Assembly: GCF_004010195.1 (NCBI RefSeq)
Contig: NC_057749.1
Coordinates: forward strand, 15,078,583-15,142,582
DNA length: 64,000 nucleotides
Direction: 5' to 3'
Source of the DNA: Chiloscyllium plagiosum
Taxonomy: Eukaryota
Below are positions 2,028 through 50,317 of this stretch, in pieces; positions within the stretch are counted from its first letter, which is position 1; every line of letters starts with the position of its first letter. The notes below the pieces were generated by a model. The model saw nothing but the letters and a program-made list of their open reading frames with translations. It searched no databases and was not told the DNA's origin. The translations under genes and the position numbers were made by a program.

Positions 2028-3420
2028 GAGTCATAGAGATGTACAGCATGGAAACAGACCCTTCGGTCCAACCTGTCCATGCCGACCAGATATCCCAGCC
2101 CAATCTAGCCCCACCTGCCAGCACCCAACCCATATCCCTCCAAACCCTTCCTATTCATATACCCATCCANNNNNNNNNNNNNNNNNNNNNNNNNNNNNNN
2201 NNNNNNNNNNNNNNNNNNNNNNNNNNNNNNNNNNNNNNNNNNNNNNNNNNNNNNNNNNNNNNNNNNNNNNNNNNNNNNNNNNNNNNNNNNNNNNNNNNNN
2301 NNNNNNNNNNNNNNNNNNNNNNNNNNNNNNNNNNNNNNNNNNNNNNNNNNNNNNNNNNNNNNNNNNNNNNNNNNNNNNNNNNNNNNNNNNNNNNNNNNNN
2401 NNNNNNNNNNNNNNNNNNNNNNNNNNNNNNNNNNNNNNNNNNNNNNNNNNNNNNNNNNNNNNNNNNNNNNNNNNNNNNNNNNNNNNNNNNNNNNNNNNNN
2501 NNNNNNNNNNNNNNNNNNNNNNNNNNNNNNNNNNNNNNNNNNNNNNNNNNNNNNNNNNNNNNNNNNNNNNNNNNNNNNNNNNNNNNNNNNNNNNNNNNNN
2601 NNNNNNNNNNNNNNNNNNNNNNNNNNNNNNNNNNNNNNNNNNNNNNNNNNNNNNNNNNNNNNNNNNNNNNNNNNNNNNNNNNNNNNNNNNNNNNNNNNNN
2701 NNNNNNNNNNNNNNNNNNNNNNNNNNNNNNNNNNNNNNNNNNNNNNNNNNNNNNNNNNNNNNNNNNNNNNNNNNNNNNNNNNNNNNNNNNNNNNNNNNNN
2801 NNNNNNNNNNNNNNNNNNNNNNNNNNNNNNNNNNNNNNNNNNNNNNNNNNNNNNAGATTAGATTAGATTAGATTACTTACAGTGTGGAAACAGGCCCTTC
2901 GGCCCAAGTCCACACCGACCCGCCGAAGCGCAACCCACCCAGGCCCATTCCCCTATTTCTTCAAAAAACTCAATCAAGTTTGTGGGACATGATTTCCCAT
3001 GCACAAAGCCATGTTGACTATCCCGAATCAGTCCCTGTCTTTCCAAATACATGTACATCCTGTCCGTCAGGATTCCCTCCAACAACTTGCCCACCACTGA
3101 GGTCAGGCTCACTGGTCTATAGTTCCCAGGTTTGTCTTTACCACCCTTTTTCTTAAACAGTGGCACGTTTGCCAACCTCCAGTCTTCCGGCACCTCACCT
3201 GTGACTATCGATGATACAAATATCTCAGCAAGAGGCCCAGCAATCACTTCTCTAGCTTCCCACAGAGTTCTCGGGTACACCTGATCAGGTCCTGGGGATT
3301 TATCCACTTTTAACCATTTCAAGACATCCAGCACTTTCTCCTCTGTAATCTGGACATTTTGCAAGGTGTCACCATCTATTTCCCTACAATCTATATCTTC
3401 CATATTCTTTTCGTGAATAA
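2028..3420 (-). mobile_element. HER1/CR1-type LINE fragment(s) spanning an N gap; RT-region remnant
   Basis: ORF 2873..3514 contains [42 protein letters not shown] and SQHGF, which are CR1 RT motifs. An HE1 3' tail with (AATCT)n sits at about 2855-2953. Confidence 0.85.
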
Positions 3421-3784
3421 AAATTTTCAAAAAAGGACTGAGATTGAGGGAGGCTGAGGAGCTCTGATCATGCAAATGCCAAGAAATTATTGCATATGCA
3501 GAGGCCCTCCACACCCAGGAGCTACATTAGTGGGTGACCAGAATGGTTGGAGAGTTAAACAATTAGTTTTCAATCTCCTAATTAAAAAGGGATGTGCCTT
3601 GTTTTAACTGGGTCAGTTACATCGTCACTGTCACCATTAAATCAGCTGGAGTCCCCATTAAGAGGTGGAAATGGAAGAATTCCCAGTAACCTGAAAGGTA
3701 CACCATGAGAACAAATGATAAACACTTAAGCATCGCTCACATTGATAAACAAGACAGCAACAATGAAAATACAGGACAATTACC

Positions 3785-4095
3785 ACCGGTCCATATACAC
3801 TCCATCACCACCCCGGTCCGTACACTCTCCATCACCACCCCGGTCCGTACACTCTCCATCACCGCCCCGGTCCGTACACTCTCCATCACCGCCCCGGTCC
3901 GTATACTCTCCATCACCGCCCCGGTCCGTATACTCTCCATCACCGCCCCAGTCTGTATACTCTCAATCACCACCCTGGTCTGTATACTCTCAATCACCAC
4001 CCTGGTCCATATACTCTCAATCACCGCCCCGGTCCGTATACTCTCCATCACCGCCCCGGTCCGTATACTCTCCATCACCCGGTCCGTATATTCTC
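3785..4095. repeat. 27-bp minisatellite, about 11 copies
   Basis: Unit atcaccgccccggtccgtatactctcc; gives the 9-aa periodicity in the overlapping ORFs. Confidence 0.95.
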
Positions 4096-4149
4096 AATTA
4101 TCAGTAAAGTCACATCAGGTGTCATCAGCAGTGCTACCCAGTGGCACTT

Positions 4150-4845
4150 ACTCAACAATAACTGCTCGCTGATGCCCAGTTTGAATTCTGCCGGGGCCAC
4201 TCAGCACATGTTCTCATTACAGCCTCAGTGCAAACACAGCCAGAAGAGCTGGATCCCAGAGGTGAGGTGGCAGTGGCAGTGGCTGTCCTTGACACCAAGG
4301 CTGTATCTGACCTAGTACAGCATCAAGGAACCCTAGCAAAACTGAACTCAATGGAAAATAGAGAAAACTCTCCGCTGGTGGGAGCTACATTCCTCAAGAA
4401 GACTGTTGTGATGGCTCAGTCATCTCTGCAGAAGTTCCTGAGGATAAGTGCAGATGTTCATCGATGATTGCACAAAATTAAACACCATTCGCAACTTCTC
4501 AGGTTCTGAAGCAGTCCACTTCCAAATGCAGCGAGACCTGGACAACATCCAGGTTTGACTAACAACTGACAAATAACATGTGGACCACACAAATACCAGG
4601 CAATGGCCATCTCGAACAAGGCAGAAGCTAAATACTGTGGCTACAAGAACAGGTCAGAGGCGAGGAAACTGGTAACTCCCCTCCTGACTCCCCAAAGCCT
4701 GTCCACTATCTACAAGGCACAGGTCAGGAAAGTGATGGAATATTCCTCACTTGTCTGGATAACTGCAGCTCCAATAATATTCAGGACTCTAGACACCATC
4801 CAGGCCAACGCAACCCACCTGACTAGCACTCCATCCACAAGCATC
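4150..4845 (+). mobile_element. Degenerate CR1/L2-group LINE, 5' part of the outer nested element
   Basis: RT-like remnants (VAVLDTKAVSDLV; LSTIYKAQVRKVMEYSSLVW). The element resumes at about 7100. Confidence 0.7.
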
Positions 4846-4859
4846 AGGCTGCCTTCATC

Positions 4860-4960
4860 CTTTGCAATTCAATTACCGGCACAACAGGTCCACAGCAGAC
4901 ACCATCTCCCTTGCCCTAGACTCAGCCCTCGAACATCTGGATAACAAGGACACCTACATA
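4860..4960 (+). mobile_element. Rex1/Babar-like LINE RT fragment, 5' part
   Basis: [31 protein letters not shown]. Continues after the CR1 insert at about 6097 (IDYSSTFNTIIP). Confidence 0.75.
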
Positions 4961-6096
4961 TGGATACGGATTTCAGTAAGATATTTGATAAGGTTTGCCA
5001 CAGTGGGCTATTGCACAAAACACGGAGGCATGGGATTGAGGGTGATTTAGCGGTTTCGATCAAAAATTGGCTAGCTGTAAGACGACAGAGGGTGGTGGTT
5101 GATGGGAAATGTTCATCCTGGAGTTCAGTTACTAGTGGTGTAACTCAAGGATCTGGTTTGGGGTCACTGCTGTTTGTCATTTTTATAAATGACCTGGATG
5201 AGGGTGTAGAAGGATGGGTTAGTAAATTTGTGGATGACACTAAGGTTGGTGGAGTTGTGGACAGTGCTGAAGGATGTTGCAGGTTACAGAGGGACATAGA
5301 TAAGCTGCAGAGCTGAGCTGAGAGGTGGCAAGTGGAGTTTAATGCGGACAAATGTGAGGTGATTCACTTTGGAAGGAGTAACAAGAATGTAAAGTACTGG
5401 GTTAATGCTAAGATTCTTGTAGATGAACAGAGAGATCTTGGTGTACATGTACATAGATCCCTGAAAGTTGGCACCCAGGTTGACAGGGTTGTTAAGAAGG
5501 CATACAGCGCATTAGTTTTTATTGATAGACGGATTGAGTTTCAAAGCCAAAAGGTCATGCTGCAGCTGTACAAAAGTCTGGTGCAGCCACATTTGGAGTA
5601 TTGCATACAGTTCTGGTCACTGCATTATAGGAAGGATGTGGAAGCTTTGGAAAGAGATCAGAAGAGATTTACCAGGATGTTGCCTGGTATGGAGGAAAGG
5701 CTGAGGGACTTGAGGCTGTTTTCGTTAGAGAGAAGAAGTTTGAGAGGTGACTTAATTGAGACATATCAGATAATCAGAGGGTTAGATAGGGTGGACAGTG
5801 AGAGCCTTTTTCCTCATACGGTGATGGCTAGCACGAGGGAACAGAGCTTTAAATTGAGGGGTGATAGTTATAGGACAGATGGCAGAGGTAATTTCTTTAC
5901 TCGGAGAGTAGTAGGGGTGCACTGCCTGCAACAGTAGTAGACTCGCCAACTTTAAGGGGATCTAAATGGGCATTGGATAAACACATGGATGAGAATGGAA
6001 TGGTGCAGGTTGGATAGGCTTCAGATTGGTTACACAGGTCGGCACATCATTGAGGGCCGAAGGGCCTGCACTGAGCTGTAAAGTTCTATGTTCTAG
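4961..6096 (+). mobile_element. 5'-truncated CR1 (HER1-related) LINE
   Basis: [52 protein letters not shown] and LFSLERRSLRGDLIE. Ends in a (ttctatg)-type tail. Confidence 0.92.
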
Positions 6097-7470: not shown

Positions 7471-8710
7471 GGAATGTTATTCATTCCCCAAATGTCACCC
7501 AGGGCAGGGTACTGGGTTTGGGAGGGAGCGACACTGATCCCCAGAGATCCAGCTTTTCACTGGTCACCATGTGCATGCCAATAGTTCAGCCTCCTGTTTG
7601 CTCTCATAATCAGGAGGCCATTCAGCCCCTCCAGCTCTACCGTCACTCAGTCAGGTCATGGCTGATCTATGCCACGAATCTTTTTACTTGGCTTTATTGC
7701 ACAGGCCTCAGGCCTCGTCCCCAGTGCACAATTAACTTCTCAGTCCGAACTCAGTTTAGGCATCAACGCGCCTGAGTATCGCTTGGCAACCAGATTGGGA
7801 ATGGAAGCAACAAGTAAAAGGCAGATGCAACACACAAGTGTTCTTAACACGAAAACTTTAGGAATCCAAATTGGTCACATTCCATCCAGGCAGCAGAAGA
7901 ACACATTCGCCCCCGAGGAAGGCATCTGGAGCTGATTCACTCAAATGCTTCCAGGCATTGAAGGGTCAGTTTCTAGGTTGCATGATATTGGCTTGTATCC
8001 ACTTGAGTTTAAAAGTTTAACGGATGAAATAATTGGTTTTTAAACATGATCAAGGAAGTGGATACAGAGAAATTAATTCTGCTCCCTTGTTTCAGAGAGG
8101 GGTTTTACAGTTACACCTCATCCACTTAGGAACGAAATGAAGACAGACCTTTTTAACATGGGGTCTCCGTTAAAGACCAAAGGGAGGACTCTGTTTCTCT
8201 GCCAGAGGATTGAGTGTCGTTGGAACTCTCCTCCCCAGAGAGAAGTGCAGGTAGGGATAATTGAATAAAGACAGCTTCTTGCACAAGTCTAAGTAAACCA
8301 CCCAAAGGTTCCCTGTAAAGTCACAGCGCACCTAGTTCTCTCCTGCAAACTGATGGAGCCCAGACTGAACCCCCTCAAAACATAGCAGGGAGATCGCCAA
8401 ATGCTTTTGTACTTCAAAAGGCAAGGGCCAGGCATTGCATTCCAGATGCAATTCAATTGGACAAGCTGCCAGGCTTGAAGCCAAACATATTTTATTCCTA
8501 CAACATAGAATTCGTAGAATCTGCTACAGGCCATTCAGCCCATTGAATCCACACTTATCCTCTGAAGGGTCACTCTCCCCACCCCACCCAAAACTGGGAA
8601 CACACTCTCCCCCCACAAACATACTCCCCTCCCCACTCCCCAACCAGGAACACACTCTTCTCCACCCCCCGCCTCCTCCCACCGGGAACATACTCACCTC
8701 CCCCCTTCCC

Positions 8711-9654
8711 GGGGGGAGGCTGTAATCGCTGCTTACTCTCCCCTGAAGCAGCATTCGGGGGGAGGCTGTAATCGCTGCTTACTCTCCCCTGAAGCAGCAT
8801 TCGGGGGGAGGCTGTAATCGCTGCTTACTCTCCCCTGAAGCAGCATTCGGGGGGAGGCTGTAATCGCTGCTTACTCTCCCCTGAAGCAGCATTCGGGGGG
8901 AGGCTGTAATCGCTGCTTACTCTCCCCTGAAGCAGCATTCGGGGGGAGGCTGTAATCGCTGCTTACTCTCCCCTGAAGCAGCATTCGGGGGGAGGCTGTA
9001 ATCGCTGCTTACTCTCCCCTGAAGCAGCATTCGGGGGGAGGCTGTAATCGCTGCTTACTCTCCCCTGAAGCAGCATTCGGGGGGAGGCTGTAATCGCTGC
9101 TTACTCTCCCCTGAAGCAGCATTCGGGGGGAGGCTGTAATCGCTGCTTACTCTCCCCTGAAGCAGCATTCGGGGGGAGGCTGTAATCGCTGCTTACTCTC
9201 CCCTGAAGCAGCATTCGGGGGGAGGCTGTAATCGCTGCTTACTCTCCCCTGAAGCAGCATTCGGGGGGAGGCTGTAATCGCTGCTTACTCTCCCCTGAAG
9301 CAGCATTCGGGGGGAGGCTGTAATCGCTGCTTACTCTCCCCTGAAGCAGCATTCGGGGGGAGGCTGTAATCGCTGCTTACTCTCCCCTGAAGCAGCATTC
9401 GGGGGGAGGCTGTAATCGCTGCTTACTCTCCCCTGAAGCAGCATTCGGGGGGAGGCTGTAATCGCTGCTTACTCTCCCCTGAAGCAGCATTCGGGGGGAG
9501 GCTGTAATCGCTGCTTACTCTCCCCTGAAGCAGCATTCGGGGGGAGGCTGTAATCGCTCTTACTCTCCCCTGAAGCAGCATTCGGGGGGAGGCTGTAATC
9601 ACTGCTTACTCTCCCCTGAAGCAGCATTCGGGGGGAGGCTGTAATCGCTGCTTA
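8711..9654. repeat. 46-bp minisatellite, about 20.5 near-identical copies
   Basis: Unit ggggggaggctgtaatcgctgcttactctcccctgaagcagcattc. Variants seen only near the right end. Confidence 0.97.
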
Positions 9655-13803: not shown

Positions 13804-14011
13804 CTCGGCATGAAGATGGAGTTGTGCAGGAAGTTCTCAAACGACTTCTGAAACATGACTTCCTCTGCCTCTGCCTTCAGCTCGTCTGGGGATTTCGGAC
13901 AGGTACAGCACTGCCCGTGCTCCGTTTTCCCAGACTGCTTGGAGTCGGCATCGCCCTCCCCCTCCAAATCGATGGCCCCAGTTGCTGAGATTCTGGTGGG
14001 CAGCTTCATAC
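13804..14011 (-). CDS. INSRR: Exon 10 equivalent (insert domain with CCxC motif and alphaCT helix), 208 bp
   Basis: (G)MKLPTRISATG...GQCCTCPKSPDELKAEAEEVMFQKSFENFLHNSIFMP(R). Acceptor ttttcttccag, donor AG|gtaagt. Confidence 0.93.
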
Positions 14012-16120: not shown

Positions 16121-16359
16121 CTGAGGCATTTGTCTTCATGTAGATGATCTCACTCTTTGCCCCATGGTTGCGGCCATCTTCTGAGGTGGCGAGTGTGATT
16201 GCCTTCACAAAAATGGCGTACTGTGTCCAGGGCTTCAGATTTGTCAAATACACCCCAGGCTCTTGGGTCTTGCTCTGGGGAAGGTCAACGTCAACCATGC
16301 TCCAGCTGTTGGAGCCACATGCGTCTTGGCCATCATACTCTGTCAAATTTTGAAAGGGT
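16121..16359 (-). CDS. INSRR: Exon 8 equivalent (FnIII-1), 239 bp
   Basis: [56 protein letters not shown]...[14 protein letters not shown]. Acceptor ttcctttcccctcaag, donor G|gtacca. Confidence 0.93.
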
Positions 16360-18558: not shown

Positions 18559-18685
18559 GCCTCCTTGTAGTAGACAATAAAGCTGATGAGGTCCCTGTAA
18601 TCTGGAGGCCGATATCGCTCCCATTTCAGTAGTATCCTGTTTTTTGCTGTGGAATTGGCCGTGAACTTCAAGATGTGACTTTCAC
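18559..18685 (-). CDS. INSRR: Exon 7 equivalent (FnIII-1), 127 bp
   Basis: [41 protein letters not shown](A). Acceptor ttttgttacctag, donor GC|gtaagt. Confidence 0.93.
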
Positions 18686-20030: not shown

Positions 20031-20245
20031 AGGACGCTCTGTCTCCATTAGTCCTCTGCTCCATATCTGCATTGCCCTGTCGCCCTTTCACACCAGCCAC
20101 CTCCACCATGCGGTAAATCTCAGATACGCAGAGCTTGGGGTTGAAGGCGAAGTAGATTTTCCCCTGTTTGATGGTGAGGTTGTGACGGCTCCAGTCCCAC
20201 AGCTGCTGAAGGTTCTGGTTGTCCAACACGTAGAAAGAATAGTTC
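20031..20245 (-). CDS. INSRR: Exon 6 equivalent (L2 domain), 215 bp
   Basis: [46 protein letters not shown]...RTNGDRAS(C). Acceptor gaaatgagcag, donor T|gtgagt. Confidence 0.93.
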
Positions 20246-20900: not shown

Positions 20901-23031
20901 AAAAGAGGGGAAGACTCCAAAGCTGGTTGGAAACACACCTGAGAGCACGTCCACCACGTTTATTGCAAACACATCGGGTCTCCAAGAAATAGAGTGGAAG
21001 GGCCGGTGTGGCTTTGGGGTGGGGATCACTCTATACAGCCCTGCGGGAACACCTTTGAATGGACTGTGGTCTCTTATCACATACTCAAACAAACTCTAAC
21101 AAGGCTTTCTCGAAGAGCTATTCCCAGCACATGTTTTGTTTCCTCGCCCAGACCAGTATAGCTCTGTGACCACTGGGCTGTGTCAGTAAGACACATGATA
21201 CCAAGCAATTCACAACAAACTGGATGGATAGTCAGGCCAACGTGACCTTTCCCATGACCCCACTGCTTGAAGTCAAAGGCCTCCCTGTACGAAGTTCCTC
21301 GTCTGCTTCCGAGTTTAAAGAACTACCCCTTCAGCAATTAGTGCTTTCACCATCTAAAACCGTGCGTTAATTTTGGACACAGGTTAGTTTTAGGGAGGAA
21401 AGAAAGGGAGACATTTAATTACCCTGCTTTGTGAAGTTACAGAAATATTTGTACTTCTCCGTATTTAACCTATTCCCAGCTCTGGATTTGCTTATCCATG
21501 CCTGTCCTTTACTAGGCAATTTTATTTGTGTTTTCTGAATGTTATCTTGAACTTATATCGTACCAGATCCAGCTCTGTAAGACACAGCAGCAGGGGGAGA
21601 ACATTCAGCCCATGAGTCTGCTCCGCCATTCAAAGAGAACAGAGCTGATCTAATAACGATCAAAACTTCTCTTGAAATCTTTTACAATCAATAGATTACT
21701 TTTGAACGAGACAGACAGAAGGCGGCCATTCAGCCCCTCATAAACCTGTTCTGCTATTCAGTTAGACTGTAGTTGCTTTGTACCCTAATGCCATCTATTC
21801 CATGCTATTCCTGGTGGGAGAGACTGGAACGAGGGGAGAGTTCAAAGGCAAGGTGTCTTGTACTTCAGGTGAAGATGAGGGGAATTCTATTCTCTCCAGA
21901 GGTTCAGGGCCCTCAGAAATCTCTTCTGCTGACAGCAGTGGAGGGAGAGTCACTGAACGAGTATAAGGCTGAGGTAGATCGTCTCCTGAGAAACAATGGA
22001 GTCAGAGTGTTTCCGAGGGGAGGCGAGAACTTGGGAGTTGATCAGCCATGATATTACGGAGGGCCAGAACAGGTTCAGAGGGCGGAATGGCCTGCTCCTA
22101 ATTTGCATCTACCTTCAAGAACCTTAGTACCTTTGCCAAAAAATAAAACATTATTTTCGGATCGAGAAATATTCAATTTCTTTTCTTGAACAGCAGAGCC
22201 TTTTGGATGGAAGTGTTCCGGGCTTCTGCAGTGTGTGGAAAACTGCTCCGTGCCATCACCCCTGACTGCCCCAGCTCCGGACTGGGACATGACTCGCACT
22301 TTCCAGCCTCCCTCACCCCACACCGTGTCCTTATAGAGAAGCCAGTTTCTCTCTCCATTGCCAAAACCCTTCGATGGATCAGAAACACCTCAATCAGACT
22401 GCTCCTTAATTTGCAACACTCAGTGCGTATCAGGTGTCCGGCAATGGGGCGGATTGCTAAAGATTAAACCCCACCAATGCGGGAAAATGGTTTTGAGGTG
22501 ACAGTTCAGCCGCAAACCTGCTCGAATGGCAGGGCAGGCTAGAGGGGCCGAGTGGCGTACTCCTGATCCTCTTCCCTACCCTCCTCATAATAATAACCCC
22601 TGCATTATTCTGAAGGTATACAGACAAACAGAGTCACCAAGCTGCAGAGAGGAAAGGTCTGCACACAGCGGTGTGATAAAATGACCAAACCACCAAGCAT
22701 TGGGTGAGATGTTTGAGGGATACATGATGACTACAAGGTGAATACTGAAAGGGCAGAGGAACTACTGGCCGGGGGCTTTGGAGAATGGTTCATGCTTTAC
22801 CTTAGGGACCCAGTCAAGGTCACTGCAGCAGGTAGTGCTATGCTAAGACTACAATGGTGGTTATTAAAATTCACTGCTAAATGAGCTGAAAACATTCAGG
22901 TGCCAAACAGGTTGAGCACTGGACAGCTCTATTTGCATTACAATGGCACGCAAGGTGATAGTCTGATCAAATCACGTTAGTTTCGGTCACATTGCTAGAG
23001 GGATACATGTTGACTAAGACTTAAAAGTTAA

Positions 23032-23540
23032 AGTGTCACACAGCACTGAAACAGACCCTTCGGCCCAACCCGTCCATGCTGACCAGATATCCCAACCCAA
23101 TCTAGTCCCACCTTCCAGCACCCGGCCCATATCCTTCCAAACCCTTCTTATTCATATACCCATCCAGATGCCTTTTAACTGCTGTAATTGTACCAGCCTC
23201 CACCACTTCCATACATGTACCACCCTCTGCATGAAAATGTTACCCCTTAGGTCATTTTTAAATCTTTCCCCTCTCATCTTAAACCTATGCCCTCTAGTTT
23301 TGGACTCCCCCACCCTAGAGAAAAGACTTTGTCTATTTATCCTATCCATATCCCTAATGATTTTATAAACCTCTGTAAGGTCACCCCTCAGCCTCCGACG
23401 CTCCAGGGAAAACAGCCCCAGCCTATTCAGCCTCTCCCTACAGCTCAAACCCTCTAGCCCAGGCAACAGCCTTGTAAATCTTTGCCGAACCCTTTCGCGT
23501 TTCACAACATCTTGCCTACAGGAAGGAGGCCAGAATTCCT
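23032..23540 (-). mobile_element. HER1/CR1 LINE 3' fragment
   Basis: ORF 23152..23562: [35 protein letters not shown]. Confidence 0.9.
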
Positions 23541-23727
23541 CAAACTGTGGGGCGAATTTCAAGAGGGAGCTCAGGGCTGAGGAATGGGCGACGTGGAGAG
23601 GAGTTGTTGCTGTATGTTTTAAGGGGTCTCGTCAGAGTCAGTGCAGCTGAGACTGAGCGAGGGCAGGCATCTCTCCCACCCCCCCCCCGCCCACCCCGCA
23701 CCCCCCTCCCCCCAGTAAGGCACTCAC

Positions 23728-23872
23728 CCTTCCAGCTGATCCTCGCCATTGATGTAGCGCAGACTCTTGAAGAAGGAAAGCGAGACCAGGGCATACGAAT
23801 GGCGGATTTTCACGTACCCCGAAATGGTTTCTATCAGCCCCAGGTTTGCCTCCAACTCTGCTGCGATATTGT
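23728..23872 (-). CDS. INSRR: Exon 5 equivalent (L2 domain), 145 bp; its frame is not shown in the ORF track
   Basis: Manual translation: (N)[47 protein letters not shown](G). Acceptor ttcctgttccaccag, donor GG|gtgagt. Confidence 0.93.
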
Positions 23873-24980: not shown

Positions 24981-25123
24981 TCCCCCTGCGGATTGTGATG
25001 ATCAAGTTGCCGTCGATGACCGTGCATCCTTGCAGGTTCTGGGCCGCGGTGACAGAGTCGATGGTCTTCGTCTTCACTGAGCAGACACTGGGACAGGGGC
25101 CATCACAAGGAGTGCAGTACATG
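24981..25123 (-). CDS. INSRR: Exon 4 equivalent (end of CR, start of L2), 143 bp
   Basis: [47 protein letters not shown]. Acceptor tctttctgcag, donor A|gtaagt. Confidence 0.93.
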
Positions 25124-25367
25124 CTGCAGAAAGAGGACACCGGGTTACCCACTCCCACAACAGCAGCCAAACAGGGTTCGGTCACACCTTGGAGATAGAC
25201 CAGCCCTTTCATTACCAACCTCTGGGAGGACCATCACTTACCACCCATTAAAGGGGGGGAACGGCAGTGTTTAGTTCAAGCTTCTCTTTGGTTGGGAAGA
25301 GTTGGGAGATGGTGGGGAGAGGGGAGTTGGTGAAGGGAAAGAGACAGAAAGGGGTGGAGAGAGGGTC

Positions 25368-28300
25368 AGAGAGAGAGAGGGGATGGAGGGAGGGTCAGAG
25401 AGAGAGAGGGGATGGAGGGAGGGTCAGAGAGAGAGAGGGGATGGAGGGAGGGTCAGAGAGAGAGAGGGGATGGAGGGAGGGTCAGAGAGAGAGAGGGGAT
25501 GGAGGGAGGGTCAGAGAGAGAGAGGGGATGGAGGGAGGGTCAGAGAGAGAGAGGGGATGGAGGGAGGGTCAGAGAGAGAGAGGGGATGGAGGGAGGGTCA
25601 GAGAGAGAGAGGGGATGGAGGGAGGGTCAGAGAGAGAGAGGGGATGGAGGGAGGGTCAGAGAGAGAGAGGGGATGGAGGGAGGGTCAGAGAGAGAGAGGG
25701 GATGGAGGGAGGGTCAGAGAGAGAGAGGGGATGGAGGGAGGGTCAGAGAGAGAGAGGGGATGGAGGGAGGGTCAGAGAGAGAGAGGGGATGGAGGGAGGG
25801 TCAGAGAGAGAGAGGGGATGGAGGGAGGGTCAGAGAGAGAGAGGGGATGGAGGGAGGGTCAGAGAGAGAGAGGGGATGGAGGGAGGGTCAGAGAGAGAGG
25901 GAGGGGATGGAGGGAGGGTCAGAGAGAGAGAGGGGATGGAGGGAGGGTCAGAGAGAGAGGGAGGGGATGGAGGGAGGGTCAGAGAGAGAGAGGGGATGGA
26001 GGGAGGGTCAGAGAGAGAGGGAGGGGATGGAGGGAGGGTCAGAGAGAGAGAGGGGATGGAGGGAGGGTCAGAGAGAGAGGGAGGGGATGGAGGGAGGGTC
26101 AGAGAGAGAGAGGGGATGGAGGGAGGGTCAGAGAGAGAGGGAGGGGATGGAGGGAGGGTCAGAGAGAGAGAGGGGATGGAGGGAGGGTCAGAGAGAGAGG
26201 GAGGGGATGGAGGGAGGGTCAGAGAGAGAGAGGGGATGGAGGGAGGGTCAGAGAGAGAGGGAGGGGATGGAGGGAGGGTCAGAGAGAGAGAGGGGATGGA
26301 GGGAGGGTCAGAGAGAGAGGGAGGGGATGGAGGGAGGGTCAGAGAGAGAGAGGGGATGGAGGGAGGGTCAGAGAGAGAGGGAGGGGATGGAGGGAGGGTC
26401 AGAGAGAGAGAGGGGATGGAGGGAGGGTCAGAGAGAGAGGGAGGGGATGGAGGGAGGGTCAGAGAGAGAGAGGGGATGGAGGGAGGGTCAGAGAGAGAGG
26501 GAGGGGATGGAGGGAGGGTCAGAGAGAGAGAGGGGATGGAGGGAGGGTCAGAGAGAGAGGGAGGGGATGGAGGGAGGGTCAGAGAGAGAGAGGGGATGGA
26601 GGGAGGGTCAGAGAGAGAGGGAGGGGATGGAGGGAGGGTCAGAGAGAGAGAGGGGATGGAGGGAGGGTCAGAGAGAGAGGGAGGGGATGGAGGGAGGGTC
26701 AGAGAGAGAGAGGGGATGGAGGGAGGGTCAGAGAGAGAGGGAGGGGATGGAGGGAGGGTCAGAGAGAGAGAGGGGATGGAGGGAGGGTCAGAGAGAGAGG
26801 GAGGGGATGGAGGGAGGGTCAGAGAGAGAGAGGGGATGGAGGGAGGGTCAGAGAGAGAGGGAGGGGATGGAGGGAGGGTCAGAGAGAGAGAGGGGATGGA
26901 GGGAGGGTCAGAGAGAGAGGGAGGGGATGGAGGGAGGGTCAGAGAGAGAGAGGGGATGGAGGGAGGGTCAGAGAGAGAGGGAGGGGATGGAGGGAGGGTC
27001 AGAGAGAGAGAGGGGATGGAGGGAGGGTCAGAGAGAGAGGGAGGGGATGGAGGGAGGGTCAGAGAGAGAGAGGGGATGGAGGGAGGGTCAGAGAGAGAGG
27101 GAGGGGATGGAGGGAGGGTCAGAGAGAGAGAGGGGATGGAGGGAGGGTCAGAGAGAGAGGGAGGGGATGGAGGGAGGGTCAGAGAGAGAGAGGGGATGGA
27201 GGGAGGGTCAGAGAGAGAGGGAGGGGATGGAGGGAGGGTCAGAGAGAGAGAGGGGATGGAGGGAGGGTCAGAGAGAGAGGGAGGGGATGGAGGGAGGGTC
27301 AGAGAGAGAGAGGGGATGGAGGGAGGGTCAGAGAGAGAGGGAGGGGATGGAGGGAGGGTCAGAGAGAGAGAGGGGATGGAGGGAGGGTCAGAGAGAGAGG
27401 GAGGGGATGGAGGGAGGGTCAGAGAGAGAGAGGGGATGGAGGGAGGGTCAGAGAGAGAGGGAGGGGATGGAGGGAGGGTCAGAGAGAGAGAGGGGATGGA
27501 GGGAGGGTCAGAGAGAGAGGGAGGGGATGGAGGGAGGGTCAGAGAGAGAGAGGGGATGGAGGGAGGGTCAGAGAGAGAGGGAGGGGATGGAGGGAGGGTC
27601 AGAGAGAGAGAGGGGATGGAGGGAGGGTCAGAGAGAGAGGGAGGGGATGGAGGGAGGGTCAGAGAGAGAGAGGGGATGGAGGGAGGGTCAGAGAGAGAGG
27701 GAGGGGATGGAGGGAGGGTCAGAGAGAGAGAGGGGATGGAGGGAGGGTCAGAGAGAGAGGGAGGGGATGGAGGGAGGGTCAGAGAGAGAGAGGGGATGGA
27801 GGGAGGGTCAGAGAGAGAGGGAGGGGATGGAGGGAGGGTCAGAGAGAGAGAGGGGATGGAGGGAGGGTCAGAGAGAGAGGGAGGGGATGGAGGGAGGGTC
27901 AGAGAGAGAGAGGGGATGGAGGGAGGGTCAGAGAGAGAGGGAGGGGATGGAGGGAGGGTCAGAGAGAGAGAGGGGATGGAGGGAGGGTCAGAGAGAGAGG
28001 GAGGGGATGGAGGGAGGGTCAGAGAGAGAGAGGGGATGGAGGGAGGGTCAGAGAGAGAGGGAGGGGATGGAGGGAGGGTCAGAGAGAGAGAGGGGATGGA
28101 GGGAGGGTCAGAGAGAGAGGGAGGGGATGGAGGGAGGGTCAGAGAGAGAGAGGGGATGGAGGGAGGGTCAGAGAGAGAGGGAGGGGATGGAGGGAGGGTC
28201 AGAGAGAGAGAGGGGATGGAGGGAGGGTCAGAGAGAGAGGGAGGGGATGGAGGGAGGGTCAGAGAGAGAGAGGGGATGGAGGGAGGGTCAGAGAGAGAGG

Positions 28301-31300
28301 GAGGGGATGGAGGGAGGGTCAGAGAGAGAGAGGGGATGGAGGGAGGGTCAGAGAGAGAGGGAGGGGATGGAGGGAGGGTCAGAGAGAGAGAGGGGATGGA
28401 GGGAGGGTCAGAGAGAGAGGGAGGGGATGGAGGGAGGGTCAGAGAGAGAGAGGGGATGGAGGGAGGGTCAGAGAGAGAGGGAGGGGATGGAGGGAGGGTC
28501 AGAGAGAGAGAGGGGATGGAGGGAGGGTCAGAGAGAGAGGGAGGGGATGGAGGGAGGGTCAGAGAGAGAGAGGGGATGGAGGGAGGGTCAGAGAGAGAGG
28601 GAGGGGATGGAGGGAGGGTCAGAGAGAGAGAGGGGATGGAGGGAGGGTCAGAGAGAGAGGGAGGGGATGGAGGGAGGGTCAGAGAGAGAGAGGGGATGGA
28701 GGGAGGGTCAGAGAGAGAGGGAGGGGATGGAGGGAGGGTCAGAGAGAGAGAGGGGATGGAGGGAGGGTCAGAGAGAGAGGGAGGGGATGGAGGGAGGGTC
28801 AGAGAGAGAGAGGGGATGGAGGGAGGGTCAGAGAGAGAGGGAGGGGATGGAGGGAGGGTCAGAGAGAGAGAGGGGATGGAGGGAGGGTCAGAGAGAGAGG
28901 GAGGGGATGGAGGGAGGGTCAGAGAGAGAGAGGGGATGGAGGGAGGGTCAGAGAGAGAGGGAGGGGATGGAGGGAGGGTCAGAGAGAGAGAGGGGATGGA
29001 GGGAGGGTCAGAGAGAGAGGGAGGGGATGGAGGGAGGGTCAGAGAGAGAGAGGGGATGGAGGGAGGGTCAGAGAGAGAGGGAGGGGATGGAGGGAGGGTC
29101 AGAGAGAGAGAGGGGATGGAGGGAGGGTCAGAGAGAGAGGGAGGGGATGGAGGGAGGGTCAGAGAGAGAGAGGGGATGGAGGGAGGGTCAGAGAGAGAGG
29201 GAGGGGATGGAGGGAGGGTCAGAGAGAGAGAGGGGATGGAGGGAGGGTCAGAGAGAGAGGGAGGGGATGGAGGGAGGGTCAGAGAGAGAGAGGGGATGGA
29301 GGGAGGGTCAGAGAGAGAGGGAGGGGATGGAGGGAGGGTCAGAGAGAGAGAGGGGATGGAGGGAGGGTCAGAGAGAGAGGGAGGGGATGGAGGGAGGGTC
29401 AGAGAGAGAGAGGGGATGGAGGGAGGGTCAGAGAGAGAGGGAGGGGATGGAGGGAGGGTCAGAGAGAGAGAGGGGATGGAGGGAGGGTCAGAGAGAGAGG
29501 GAGGGGATGGAGGGAGGGTCAGAGAGAGAGAGGGGATGGAGGGAGGGTCAGAGAGAGAGGGAGGGGATGGAGGGAGGGTCAGAGAGAGAGAGGGGATGGA
29601 GGGAGGGTCAGAGAGAGAGGGAGGGGATGGAGGGAGGGTCAGAGAGAGAGAGGGGATGGAGGGAGGGTCAGAGAGAGAGGGAGGGGATGGAGGGAGGGTC
29701 AGAGAGAGAGAGGGGATGGAGGGAGGGTCAGAGAGAGAGGGAGGGGATGGAGGGAGGGTCAGAGAGAGAGAGGGGATGGAGGGAGGGTCAGAGAGAGAGG
29801 GAGGGGATGGAGGGAGGGTCAGAGAGAGAGAGGGGATGGAGGGAGGGTCAGAGAGAGAGGGAGGGGATGGAGGGAGGGTCAGAGAGAGAGAGGGGATGGA
29901 GGGAGGGTCAGAGAGAGAGGGAGGGGATGGAGGGAGGGTCAGAGAGAGAGAGGGGATGGAGGGAGGGTCAGAGAGAGAGGGAGGGGATGGAGGGAGGGTC
30001 AGAGAGAGAGAGGGGATGGAGGGAGGGTCAGAGAGAGAGGGAGGGGATGGAGGGAGGGTCAGAGAGAGAGAGGGGATGGAGGGAGGGTCAGAGAGAGAGG
30101 GAGGGGATGGAGGGAGGGTCAGAGAGAGAGAGGGGATGGAGGGAGGGTCAGAGAGAGAGGGAGGGGATGGAGGGAGGGTCAGAGAGAGAGAGGGGATGGA
30201 GGGAGGGTCAGAGAGAGAGGGAGGGGATGGAGGGAGGGTCAGAGAGAGAGAGGGGATGGAGGGAGGGTCAGAGAGAGAGGGAGGGGATGGAGGGAGGGTC
30301 AGAGAGAGAGAGGGGATGGAGGGAGGGTCAGAGAGAGAGGGAGGGGATGGAGGGAGGGTCAGAGAGAGAGAGGGGATGGAGGGAGGGTCAGAGAGAGAGG
30401 GAGGGGATGGAGGGAGGGTCAGAGAGAGAGAGGGGATGGAGGGAGGGTCAGAGAGAGAGGGAGGGGATGGAGGGAGGGTCAGAGAGAGAGAGGGGATGGA
30501 GGGAGGGTCAGAGAGAGAGGGAGGGGATGGAGGGAGGGTCAGAGAGAGAGAGGGGATGGAGGGAGGGTCAGAGAGAGAGGGAGGGGATGGAGGGAGGGTC
30601 AGAGAGAGAGAGGGGATGGAGGGAGGGTCAGAGAGAGAGGGAGGGGATGGAGGGAGGGTCAGAGAGAGAGAGGGGATGGAGGGAGGGTCAGAGAGAGAGG
30701 GAGGGGATGGAGGGAGGGTCAGAGAGAGAGAGGGGATGGAGGGAGGGTCAGAGAGAGAGGGAGGGGATGGAGGGAGGGTCAGAGAGAGAGAGGGGATGGA
30801 GGGAGGGTCAGAGAGAGAGGGAGGGGATGGAGGGAGGGTCAGAGAGAGAGAGGGGATGGAGGGAGGGTCAGAGAGAGAGGGAGGGGATGGAGGGAGGGTC
30901 AGAGAGAGAGAGGGGATGGAGGGAGGGTCAGAGAGAGAGGGAGGGGATGGAGGGAGGGTCAGAGAGAGAGAGGGGATGGAGGGAGGGTCAGAGAGAGAGG
31001 GAGGGGATGGAGGGAGGGTCAGAGAGAGAGAGGGGATGGAGGGAGGGTCAGAGAGAGAGGGAGGGGATGGAGGGAGGGTCAGAGAGAGAGAGGGGATGGA
31101 GGGAGGGTCAGAGAGAGAGGGAGGGGATGGAGGGAGGGTCAGAGAGAGAGAGGGGATGGAGGGAGGGTCAGAGAGAGAGGGAGGGGATGGAGGGAGGGTC
31201 AGAGAGAGAGAGGGGATGGAGGGAGGGTCAGAGAGAGAGGGAGGGGATGGAGGGAGGGTCAGAGAGAGAGAGGGGATGGAGGGAGGGTCAGAGAGAGAGG

Positions 31301-31712
31301 GAGGGGATGGAGGGAGGGTCAGAGAGAGAGAGGGGATGGAGGGAGGGTCAGAGAGAGAGGGAGGGGATGGAGGGAGGGTCAGAGAGAGAGAGGGGATGGA
31401 GGGAGGGTCAGAGAGAGAGGGAGGGGATGGAGGGAGGGTCAGAGAGAGAGAGGGGATGGAGGGAGGGTCAGAGAGAGAGGGAGGGGATGGAGGGAGGGTC
31501 AGAGAGAGAGAGGGGATGGAGGGAGGGTCAGAGAGAGAGGGAGGGGATGGAGGGAGGGTCAGAGAGAGAGAGGGGATGGAGGGAGGGTCAGAGAGAGAGG
31601 GAGGGGATGGAGGGAGGGTCAGAGAGAGAGAGGGGATGGAGGGAGGGTCAGAGAGAGAGGGAGGGGATGGAGGGAGGGTCAGAGAGAGAGAGGGGATGGA
31701 GGGAGGGTCAGA
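25368..31712. repeat. Purine-rich satellite: about 17 x 29-bp monomers, then 97 perfect 60-bp (29+31) dimers
   Basis: Monomer agagagagagaggggatggagggagggtc; lines 25861-31680 are identical with period 60. Confidence 0.98.
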
Positions 31713-32777
31713 GAATGAGTATGAAACAGATAGTGAGAGAGAGGACAGCAGGGCAGAGAGAGAGAGAGAGAATGGGAGAGTGATAGAAAGGGGAGTGCAA
31801 AATCATGGGAGAAGAAATCTCAGAGAGATGGGACTTCCCAGGATCTGAGGGAGTATGGGAAAGAGGCAAAACATAGAGGCAGGTAAATTGCTGATGATTA
31901 ATGGAAAGGGGATTGGTGTAATTGCAGAGAAGTGACTTGGGGAGTAGACATTGTTGGCTTAATTTTAAAAGCTGACACCACCATGAAGTTATGTAGACAC
32001 TGCCTGAAGTGCTGATCCTATGGGTCTATTGTTTTTGCACTGATCTGAGGTGAGAACCTATTGTTTAAATAGATCCAAATCAGACAATTCCTGTCTTGCC
32101 CTCAAGCAGATCACCAGGAAGGTGACAGCAACATCAATCACATGACATAAACGTCTCGGCAAACTGATGCAACTCCAAGGTTCAAATCAAATTTACAAAT
32201 GTCACCCAACATAGAGCTAAAGTCCCCTCGGAATAACTAAACTTACTCAAATCAAATTCCTTGCCACAGTATAATTACCAACGGTTCACCTAATAACTAG
32301 CAACCAAAACAAAACAAAACATGTGCTTTGTGTTAGAATCACATTGTCATCATTCTCTGGGAACCAGACAAACAGAGAGAAAGAAATATCTCGGGATCTC
32401 GGCTGGGCAGGGGGTAATGAAGGCAAAGGGTTAGAAACAGGAACAGAGAGAGGCCATTCAACCATTTCAGCACGTTCCAGTCGTCAGGTCCATAGCCTGC
32501 TCTATAATTCAATACAGGTTAGAGACAAAAAAAACTGCAGATGTGGAATCCAAAGCCCGTCTACCGTAACTCAGTCTACACAGTTTTCCAGAACACACAC
32601 TCATCTTAAAAATCTCAAATTCAAACCATGAACATTGTAATCAACTCCTCAACCTCTGGAGGTAATGGGTCTTAAAGTGCTTGTGAGAGAGAAGAATTTT
32701 GAGTAAGGTTTCGCATTTCTAACCTTTGCCACTTCTGATCAAAGATTGTCAGTTTGAAACATTAATTCTGTTTCAGT

Positions 32778-34093: not shown

Positions 34094-34397
34094 CTGCTGC
34101 CATTGCGGATGTAGCCTGCTGGACATTCGAGGATACACTCTCCTTGGTGGAGGACAAACGGTTCCTTGGGACTGTTGCCTTGGAGCTTGGAGCAGAAATC
34201 CTTGGTCACACACCGCCATCCGCCATATTTGTAAGTGCCTGGCGGGCAGTTGGGCAGGCACTGGCCCTCGTGGTAGTAGTTCTGACATGCCATGCAGGCC
34301 CTGTTACTGTTCAGGGCGGTGCAACCCCCCAGACACTCCTCATGGCAGCACCCATCCTTGTTGTTACAAGCTCGCTTTCCACAGGACTTTGGGCACA
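34094..34397 (-). CDS. INSRR: Insulin-receptor-family RTK (INSRR-like/IGF1R-like), exon 3 equivalent: cysteine-rich (furin-like) domain, 304 bp
   Basis: Translates VCPKSCGKRACNNKDGCCHEECLGGC...CPPGTYKYGGWRCVT...HQGECILECPAGYIRNGS(S). Acceptor ttgtgttttgcag, donor AG|gttgga. Phase 1 to 2 joins exon 4 in frame. Family call is secure; the paralog call is an inference. Confidence 0.9.
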
Positions 34398-47800: not shown

Positions 47801-48508
47801 TAGAGTCATAGAAATGTACAGCACAGAAACAGACCCTTCGGTCCAACTAGTCCATGCCGACCAAGCATTCCAACGCAATCTAGTTCCATTTGCCAGGACC
47901 TGGCCCCTATCCCTCCAAACCCTTCCTATTCATTTACCTGGGAAAAAGTGAGGACTGCAGATGCTGGAGATCAGAGCTGAAAAATGTTTTGTTGGAAAAG
48001 CGCAGCAGGTCAAGCAGCATCCTGCTGCGCTTTTCCAGCAACACATTTTTCAGCGCTATTCATTCACCCGTCCAGATGCCTTTTAAATGCTATAATTGTA
48101 CCCCCCTCCACCACTTCCTCTGGCAGCTCATTCCATACACGTACCACCCTGTGTGTGAAAAAGTTGCTCTTTAGGTCCCTTTTATAACTTTCCCCTCTCA
48201 CCCTAAACCTAGTTTTGGACACCCCTACCCCAGGGAGAAGACTTGGCTATTCACCCTATCCGTGCCCCTCATGAGCTTATAAACCTCTATAAGGTCACCC
48301 CTCAGCCTCCGACGCTTCAGGGAAAACAGTCCCAGCCTGTTCAGCCTCTCCCTGGGCTCAAACCCTCCAACCCTGGCAACATCCTTGTAAATCTTTTCTG
48401 AACCCTTTCAAGTTTCACAACATCCTTCCAATAGCAAAGAGACCAGAATCGCACGCAATATTCCAAACGTGGCCTAACCAATGTCCTGTACAGCTGCAAC
48501 ATGACCTA
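47801..48508 (-). mobile_element. HER1/CR1 3' fragment interrupted by a palindromic element (about 47940-48055)
   Basis: LINE sequence on both sides; ctattcatt is duplicated at 47926-47934 and 48056-48064. Confidence 0.85.
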
Positions 48509-48577
48509 ATGGATAGAATCTCTTCCAATGTCTAAACTGTTGTTGTCACTATTCCATTGTTACTTACTATTTGTACA

Positions 48578-49930
48578 AGTCAGGGATGTACAGCATGGAA
48601 ACAGATCCTTCGGTTCAACTCGTCCCTGCTGACCAGATATCCCAAACCAACCTAGCGCCAACACCTGGCCCATATCCCTCCAAACCCTTTATGTTCATGT
48701 ATCCATCCAGATGCCTTTTAAATGTTGTAATTGTACCAGCTCCATCACTTCCTCTGGCAGCTCATTCCAAACACACACCACCCTCTGCATTAAAGAGTTG
48801 CACCTTAGGTCTTTTTTAAATCTTTCCCCTCTCACCCTTAAACCTATGCCCCCTAATTTTGGACTCCCCCACCCCAGGGAAAAGACTTTGTCTATTTATC
48901 CTATCCATGCCCTTCATGATTTTGTAAATCTCTATAAGGTCACCCCTCAGCCTCTGACGCTCCAGGGAAAACAGCCCCAGTCTATTCAGCCTCTCCCTAT
49001 AGCTCAAATCCTCCAACCCTGGCAACATCCTTGTAAATCTTTTTCGAACCCCTTTCGGTTTCACAACATCTTTCCGATAGGAACGAGACCAGAATTGCAT
49101 GTAATATGCCAAAAGTGGCCTAACCAATGTACTGTACAGTCACAACATGACCTCCCAACTCCTGTACTCTGACCACTAAAGCAAAGCATACCAAGTGCCT
49201 TCTTCACTATCCTATCTAACTGCAACCCCACTTTCAAGGAGCTATGAACCTGCACTCCAAGGTTTCTTTGTTTAGCAACACTCCCTAGGACCTTACCATT
49301 AAGGTATAAATCCTGCTAAGATTTGCTTTCCCAAAATGTAGCACCTCGCATTTATCTAAATTAAACTCCATCTGCCACACCTCTGCCCATTGGCCCATCT
49401 GGTCAAGATCCTGTTGTAATCTGAGGTAACCCTCTTTGCTGTCCACTACACCTCCAATTTGGTGTCATCTGCAAACTTACTAACTGTACCTCTTATGCTC
49501 ACATCCAAATCATTTATATAAATGACGGAAAGTAGTGGACCCAGCACCGATCCTTGTGGCACTCCACTGGTCACAGGCCTCCAGTCCGAAAAACAGCCCT
49601 CCATCACCACCCTCTGTCTTCTACCTTTGAGCCAGTTCTGTATCCAAATGGCTAGTTCTCCCTGTATTCCGTGAGATCTAACCTTGCTAATCAGTCTCCC
49701 ATGGGGAACCTTGTCGAACGCCTTAGTGAAGTCCATATAGATCACATCTACTGCTCTGCCCTCATCAATCTTCTTTGTTACTTCTTCAAAAAATTCAATC
49801 AAGTTTGTGAGACATGATTTCCCATGCATAAAGCCATGTTGACTATCCTGGATCAGTCCTTGCCTTTCCAAATGCATGTACATCCTGTCCCTCAGGATTC
49901 CCTCCAACAACTTGCCCACCACCGATGTCA
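48578..49930 (-). mobile_element. HER1/CR1 LINE, about 1.35-kb 3' fragment
   Basis: ORF 49446..49946: SQHGF...[17 protein letters not shown]...[12 protein letters not shown]...SKFADDTK. Confidence 0.95.
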
Positions 49931-50317
49931 GGGAACTAAATAACATGCTGCAGAGAGTGAACTGGACATGCTGAGCTGAACAGGACAGCTAACATTCCAG
50001 CACTTACTACAGATCTGCTCAGGCCAGAGGTGAGCTACCTAAAACGTCACACCTTCTCTCTCTCAATATAGATATTTCCTGGCTTCTGGCATTTTCTATC
50101 TTTCTCTCCAGAAGGGTCCAGTAAATCCAGGAGTGTAGCGACTCGGAGTTGAAAGGTCATGGTGGAACATTAAAAACATACTTCCAAATCTCACAAGTGA
50201 ATGCGTGTTTATCCAATATGACCTCAATTGGCAACCACTTCTCTTGCTGTAAAATTTGGCGTTCCCTTTCCAAAGTCTGGTTTTTTGCATCCCAGTCCTG
50301 ACGAGTACAAGGTACAT

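Follow-up and report, generated by a model that had tools for sequence, protein, structure and literature searches.

Results

Eight exons of a receptor gene in the window

The window (the whole stretch of 64,000 nucleotides of bamboo shark, Chiloscyllium plagiosum, DNA that was analysed) contains eight exons of one receptor gene on the minus strand. It is almost certain that these are exons 3-10 of bamboo shark IGF1R and that the stretch flagged in the preliminary description is the alphaCT helix of this receptor. The features are the following.

13804..14011, minus strand: exon 10, insert domain with CCxC cysteines and alphaCT (AG/GT ends, frame, E=1.2e-13 to human IGF1R)
13804..13841, minus strand: alphaCT motif FENFLHNSIFMPR (translation, IGF1R alignment; roles from the accessible parts of PMC8513149 and PMC2577065)
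15268..15435, minus strand: IGF1R exon 9, start of FnIII-2 (splice ends, Pfam fn3)
16121..16359, minus strand: IGF1R exon 8, FnIII-1 (splice ends, frame)
18559..18685, minus strand: IGF1R exon 7, start of FnIII-1 (splice ends, frame)
20031..20245, minus strand: IGF1R exon 6, L2 (splice ends, Pfam Recep_L_domain)
23728..23872, minus strand: IGF1R exon 5, L2, with QLE in place of the MVD alkali motif of INSRR (splice ends, frame)
24981..25123, minus strand: IGF1R exon 4, end of CR and start of L2 (splice ends, frame)
34094..34397, minus strand: IGF1R exon 3, cysteine-rich region (splice ends, frame)

All eight exons have AG/GT ends, and they join as one open frame of 515 amino acids. The window corresponds to C40:15078583-15142582. 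Outside it, exon 2 lies ~109 kb upstream on the same contig (C40, 15221749-15222318), and 23.9 kb separate exon 10 from the following coding exon downstream; exon 2 and the last exon bound a span of ~194 kb, and exon 1 was not located. Introns 3 and 10 carry tandem arrays (window 25252-31845 and ~8570-9650), one purine-rich and ~6 kb long and the other built of a 46-bp unit, and both arrays produce long false open frames. Broken pieces of LINE-type reverse transcriptase, which we take to be of a CR1-like family, are also present in the introns (window ~2900-5900, 23000-23600 and 48000-50000).

The flagged exon (window 14011-13804) is 208 nt long, runs in frame on the minus strand between an AG acceptor and a GT donor, and encodes the insert domain with the inter-chain cysteines (CCxC) and the alphaCT helix. 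As had been noticed from the letters, this exon closes in the alphaCT motif FENFLHNSIFMPR; its translated end is ...EEVMFQKSFENFLHNSIFMPR, the final Arg codon being interrupted by the intron. The 21 residues quoted in the preliminary description occupy 13865-13804 and the 13-residue motif 13841-13804, with the His codon at 13826-13824 and the Phe codon at 13814-13812. In a search against the PDB, exon 10 matched residues 637-704 of human IGF1R, aligned to FENFLHNSIFVPR, with E=1.2e-13, and the motif is therefore not a chance one; the matches to INSR (E ~1e-9) and to human IRR (only E=6e-5) were weaker. The motif His is equivalent to IGF1R His697 and IR His710, and the motif Phe to IGF1R Phe701 and IR Phe714. 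The motif was rejected as a marker of gene identity, the same 13 residues being found in shark IGF1R and shark INSRR.

The window gene groups with IGF1R

Names are unsafe in this receptor family (four of the five records of one shark INSRR cluster are labelled IGF1R by NCBI), and orthology was therefore tested directly. Best-hit scores were set aside together with the names: a white shark INSRR is named IGF1R, with human IGF1R at 1638.9 bits above human IRR at 1621.8. The translated exons 3-10 are identical at 515/515 amino acids to the C. plagiosum RefSeq protein 'insulin-like growth factor 1a receptor isoform X2' (P0288; igf1ra, XP_043536356.1). In unrooted trees, which were built with no outgroup and without ray-finned IGF1R and in which bony-vertebrate IGF1R means tetrapods only, the window gene fell inside the IGF1R clade with 97/92 support on exons 3-10 (39 rows) and outside the INSRR clade (100/100), the INSR clade also receiving 100/100; near full length (22 rows, 1350 columns, P0288 as the window gene), support for the IGF1R clade was 100/100. 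Identity to tetrapod IGF1R is 65-68% (6 rows), slightly above the 53-60% to INSRR. The last exon encodes a C-terminal tail of the IGF1R type ending in MNGGRKNE, and two of the nine alkali-sensing residues of IRR are present. Directly after the motif, 21 of 23 chondrichthyan IGF1R records continue with PxRKRR and have no exon-11 insert, the other two being aberrant Callorhinchus models, and a profile scan of part of intron 10 gave no convincing candidate for an exon-11 mini-exon. The accessible part of PMC2577065 likewise describes IGF1R without exon 11.

Neighbouring genes

A type VI filament exon lies on C40, 119 kb beyond exon 2, 5' of IGF1R and on the opposite strand. Its 97% match clusters with records named synemin, one of which has an accession adjacent to that of P0288, and by these cluster names, which separate it from nestin, this neighbour is synemin. 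IGF1R and SYNM are presumably adjacent in human too, in an order and orientation that differ from those in the shark, and we take SYNM, PGPEP1L, ARRDC4 and MEF2A to be the human neighbours of IGF1R. The PGPEP1L family gave 0 matches when searched as a synteny marker, and no gene was recognised by eye in the 20 kb downstream of the last IGF1R exon. Matches to NTRK, MEF2, arrestin and the SMAD family (MH2 pair), all of which we assume to be human 15q neighbours, were found on C36, with MEF2 and arrestin ~0.6 Mb apart; arrestin and MEF2 matches occur on further contigs too, and none of the four on C40. Only two NTRK matches were obtained genome-wide (C2 and C36), and because the assembly is incomplete, the lack of one on C40 counts as weak negative evidence. 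NTRK1 presumably stands directly beside INSRR, and the fused bird gene model P0108 fits this adjacency. Two further filament genes, each with one large exon at the start, were seen at C40:24254797-24255429 and on contig C65979, the latter belonging to a tanabin-type cluster and, as we would name it, nestin-like.

INSR and INSRR in the same genome

A second receptor gene, on C31, has the alphaCT FENYLHNEVF and falls in the INSR clade. A third is broken up on the unplaced contigs C83364 and C93532; C83364 falls in the INSRR clade, and exon 6 on this contig matches a partial INSRR-like record of NCBI with 100% identity. Between them, these two contigs carry exons 4-7 plus two exons of the kinase domain; exons 4 and 5 are also present as partial second copies, possibly through misassembly. 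INSRR exon 10 of C. plagiosum was not found in the assembly, two genome searches returning only the copies on C40 and C31.

At the position of exon 11, the INSR gene contains a 36-nt mini-exon flanked by AG and GT (C31:37945537-37945572, plus strand); its peptide is identical to the insert of basking shark INSR and near that of a skate, and gar also has a 12-residue insert. The insert is mostly not a new result, as PMC12796670 already notes such inserts in two chondrichthyan proteins, a separate exon not being described in the accessible text.

Alternative identities of the window gene

The preliminary description raised the possibility that the window gene is a shark INSRR with a working hormone site, which would make it a third hormone receptor. 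The true shark INSRR has the identical motif, so the motif does not speak against this, and an AU test on the window exons (20 of the 39 rows) left the placements as sister to all INSRR (p=0.09) and with INSR (p=0.053) unrejected. However, joining bony-vertebrate INSRR alone was rejected on the same exons (p=1.7e-5), and the near-full-length alignment rejected the window gene with INSRR (p=3.3e-5) and with INSR (p=4.3e-6), the rejection of the INSRR-sister and INSR placements coming only from this longer alignment. The genome has a separate INSRR gene, and the window gene has a tail of the IGF1R type and lacks both the exon-11 insert and the MVD motif; the missing NTRK match on C40 points weakly in the same direction. 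Refuted by the tree and the separate paralog, the INSRR identity retains practically no chance of being correct, and trees, RefSeq identity and the synemin neighbour all name IGF1R instead. INSR was likewise rejected, as the gene lies outside the INSR clade and its alphaCT is not of the FENYLHNEVF type.

The gene could also be a fourth ohnolog, similar to IGF1R, that arose in the vertebrate genome duplications and took the place of true IGF1R in cartilaginous fish. The window gene is on C40 and the MH2-pair, NTRK, MEF2 and arrestin matches are on C36, where no receptor exon was found (such counts being a floor); this split of putative 15q neighbours is the sole opening for hidden paralogy, although the short stem between the window gene and tetrapod IGF1R (0.07 on the window exons) would fit it as well. 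On the other hand, synemin adjoins the window gene, the IGF1R tail is conserved and the IGF1R clade is fully supported near full length, and a translocation or an ancestral microchromosome pair would explain the split between C36 and C40 more simply. We consider such a replacement very improbable.

In an IGF1R gene such as this, the His and Phe of the alphaCT are what one would expect. That the observation would then be trivial had been pointed out in the preliminary description itself, and so it has turned out: the flagged motif is predicted to be the ordinary hormone-binding alphaCT helix of bamboo shark IGF1R, and the feature is already known. In itself it is of little import, an annotated IGF1R keeping residues that are conserved throughout vertebrate IGF1Rs; residues 695-698 and 701 are fully conserved across them according to the accessible part of a 2025 survey (PMC12796670).

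The alphaCT motif of true INSRR

The motif is of more interest in true INSRR. The INSRR of four other shark species has the exact 13-mer FENFLHNSIFMPR, and that of a fifth differs at one position. Of 321 proteins, 46 were set aside and 275, of adequate length and fitting the motif pattern, were kept; by alignment score these records, which are not species, comprise 35 IGF1R, 132 INSRR and 108 INSR. The alphaCT Phe is present in 40 of the 132 INSRR records (35 named non-amniotes and 5 unnamed, 4 of the latter clustering with rays) and in none of the 92 amniote INSRR records, two of which are aberrant. The mammalian IRR form given in the preliminary description was borne out, with FENFLHNAITI in 19 placental records and HHAITI in 6 rodent records. 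The sequence is FENFLHNSIFM in bichirs, sturgeon and paddlefish and FENFLHNSIFV in coelacanth; in rays the His is replaced by Tyr, and amphibians keep Phe with His changed to Arg in all but the caecilian. From this distribution, the intact alphaCT is the ancestral condition of INSRR. The idea of an ancestral state thus fails for the window gene, which is IGF1R, and holds at the sequence level for another gene, the INSRR of four other sharks.

INSRR is found in sharks, rays, bichirs and sturgeons, and therefore goes back to the jawed-vertebrate ancestor; several of these records are already labelled INSRR-like by NCBI. PMC4898815 (2016), in which Insrr was confined to lobe-finned fish and tetrapods, proposed that it arose later by local duplication, and, in their accessible parts, PMC4898815 and PMC2577065 report no INSRR in the fishes that those studies examined. 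Among the papers searched, which included few subscription ones, none dealt with shark INSRR or with the binding site of that receptor. The accessible text of the survey PMC12796670 does not mention IRR.

Some INSRR models of sharks and rays include an 11-residue exon-11 insert and others lack it. The alkali-sensing residues of IRR, given in the accessible text of PMC5713427 as L135, G188, R244, H318, K319, M406-V407-D408 and T582 (MVD is one residue off this numbering in the gibbon reference that we used), are present at 6-7 of 9 in the seven shark and ray INSRR rows that cover every position. In L1, Asn15 is changed to His in all nine chondrichthyan INSRR records that include the position (16 examined). 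In the portion of PMC2577065 available, N15A costs 134-fold in IR and N11A 7.5-fold in IGF1R, and the alphaCT region is said to contribute little to selectivity. Because L1 Asn15 is His and 6-7 of the 9 alkali-sensing residues are present, physiological hormone binding by shark INSRR appears doubtful. Also against it, the frog IRR is reported to be alkali-activated (PMC9409083, accessible text), and the frog INSRR records analysed here retain the alphaCT Phe.

Discussion

Predicted hormone binding by shark IGF1R

The binding and activation of shark IGF1R are taken here from the known family, by analogy with which the window gene would be a normal IGF receptor in function. The precursor would be cleaved, like those of human IGF1R and INSR, at the RKRR site that directly follows the alphaCT helix; the helix would rest on the partner half-receptor's L1 sheet, with the His and the second Phe of the helix packed into the core of the bound IGF or insulin, and hormone binding would bring the kinases together. 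The preliminary description held the His and Phe of the INSR/IGF1R alphaCT to be key contacts of site 1, in agreement with the accessible parts of PMC8513149, where His710 and Phe714 of the alphaCT pack into the hormone core with the helix on L1, and of PMC2577065, where H710A and F714A cost IR >500-fold and 182-fold, respectively, and IGF1R F701A shows no detectable binding.

The L1 residues of site 1, encoded by exon 2, match INSR at 20 of 22 positions, the exceptions being position 40 and Phe64, which is Tyr. Because the shark L1 keeps Gln34, Phe39 and Phe89, which are absent from the bat and bird IGF1R rows, shark IGF1R may be less selective against insulin than mammalian IGF1R.

A possible history of IRR

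The INSRR of sharks, bichirs, sturgeons and coelacanth, which retains the His and Phe of the alphaCT and the greater part of the L1 face, would on one reading be an insulin/IGF receptor or a dual receptor for hormone and alkali, with a site that decayed stepwise. We regard this as unlikely, and within it the decay could have run from His to Tyr in rays and from His to Arg in most amphibians, with Phe lost in amniotes. Hormone binding by shark or bichir INSRR, if it occurs, would reveal the route from hormone receptor to pH sensor and would bear directly on whether IRR ever had a peptide ligand.

Comparison with known receptors

Compared with human IRR (PDB 7TYJ), an alkali-activated orphan receptor, the window gene shares the family architecture and belongs to a separate clade and locus. 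INSRR is distinguished by the MVD motif, a short tail of another type and, in most cases, an exon-11 insert, none of which is seen in the window IGF1R; of the 28 INSRR rows that cover IR position 704, 26 have Lys there (Arg in gecko and Glu in echidna). With INSR, the window gene has in common the His and Phe of site 1 and most of the L1 contact positions, whereas the INSR alphaCT reads FENYLHNEVF, as in the shark INSR copy on C31. In contrast to the bat and bird IGF1R, the shark IGF1R has a more INSR-like L1 face with Tyr for Phe64; this Tyr at IR position 64 is found in all four chondrichthyan IGF1R rows, in which the L1 face is otherwise INSR-like. The closest likeness is to vertebrate IGF1R such as the human receptor (PDB 6VWG), with which the window gene shares the same alphaCT except Met for Val, the exon layout, the tail, synemin nearby and the lack of exon 11.
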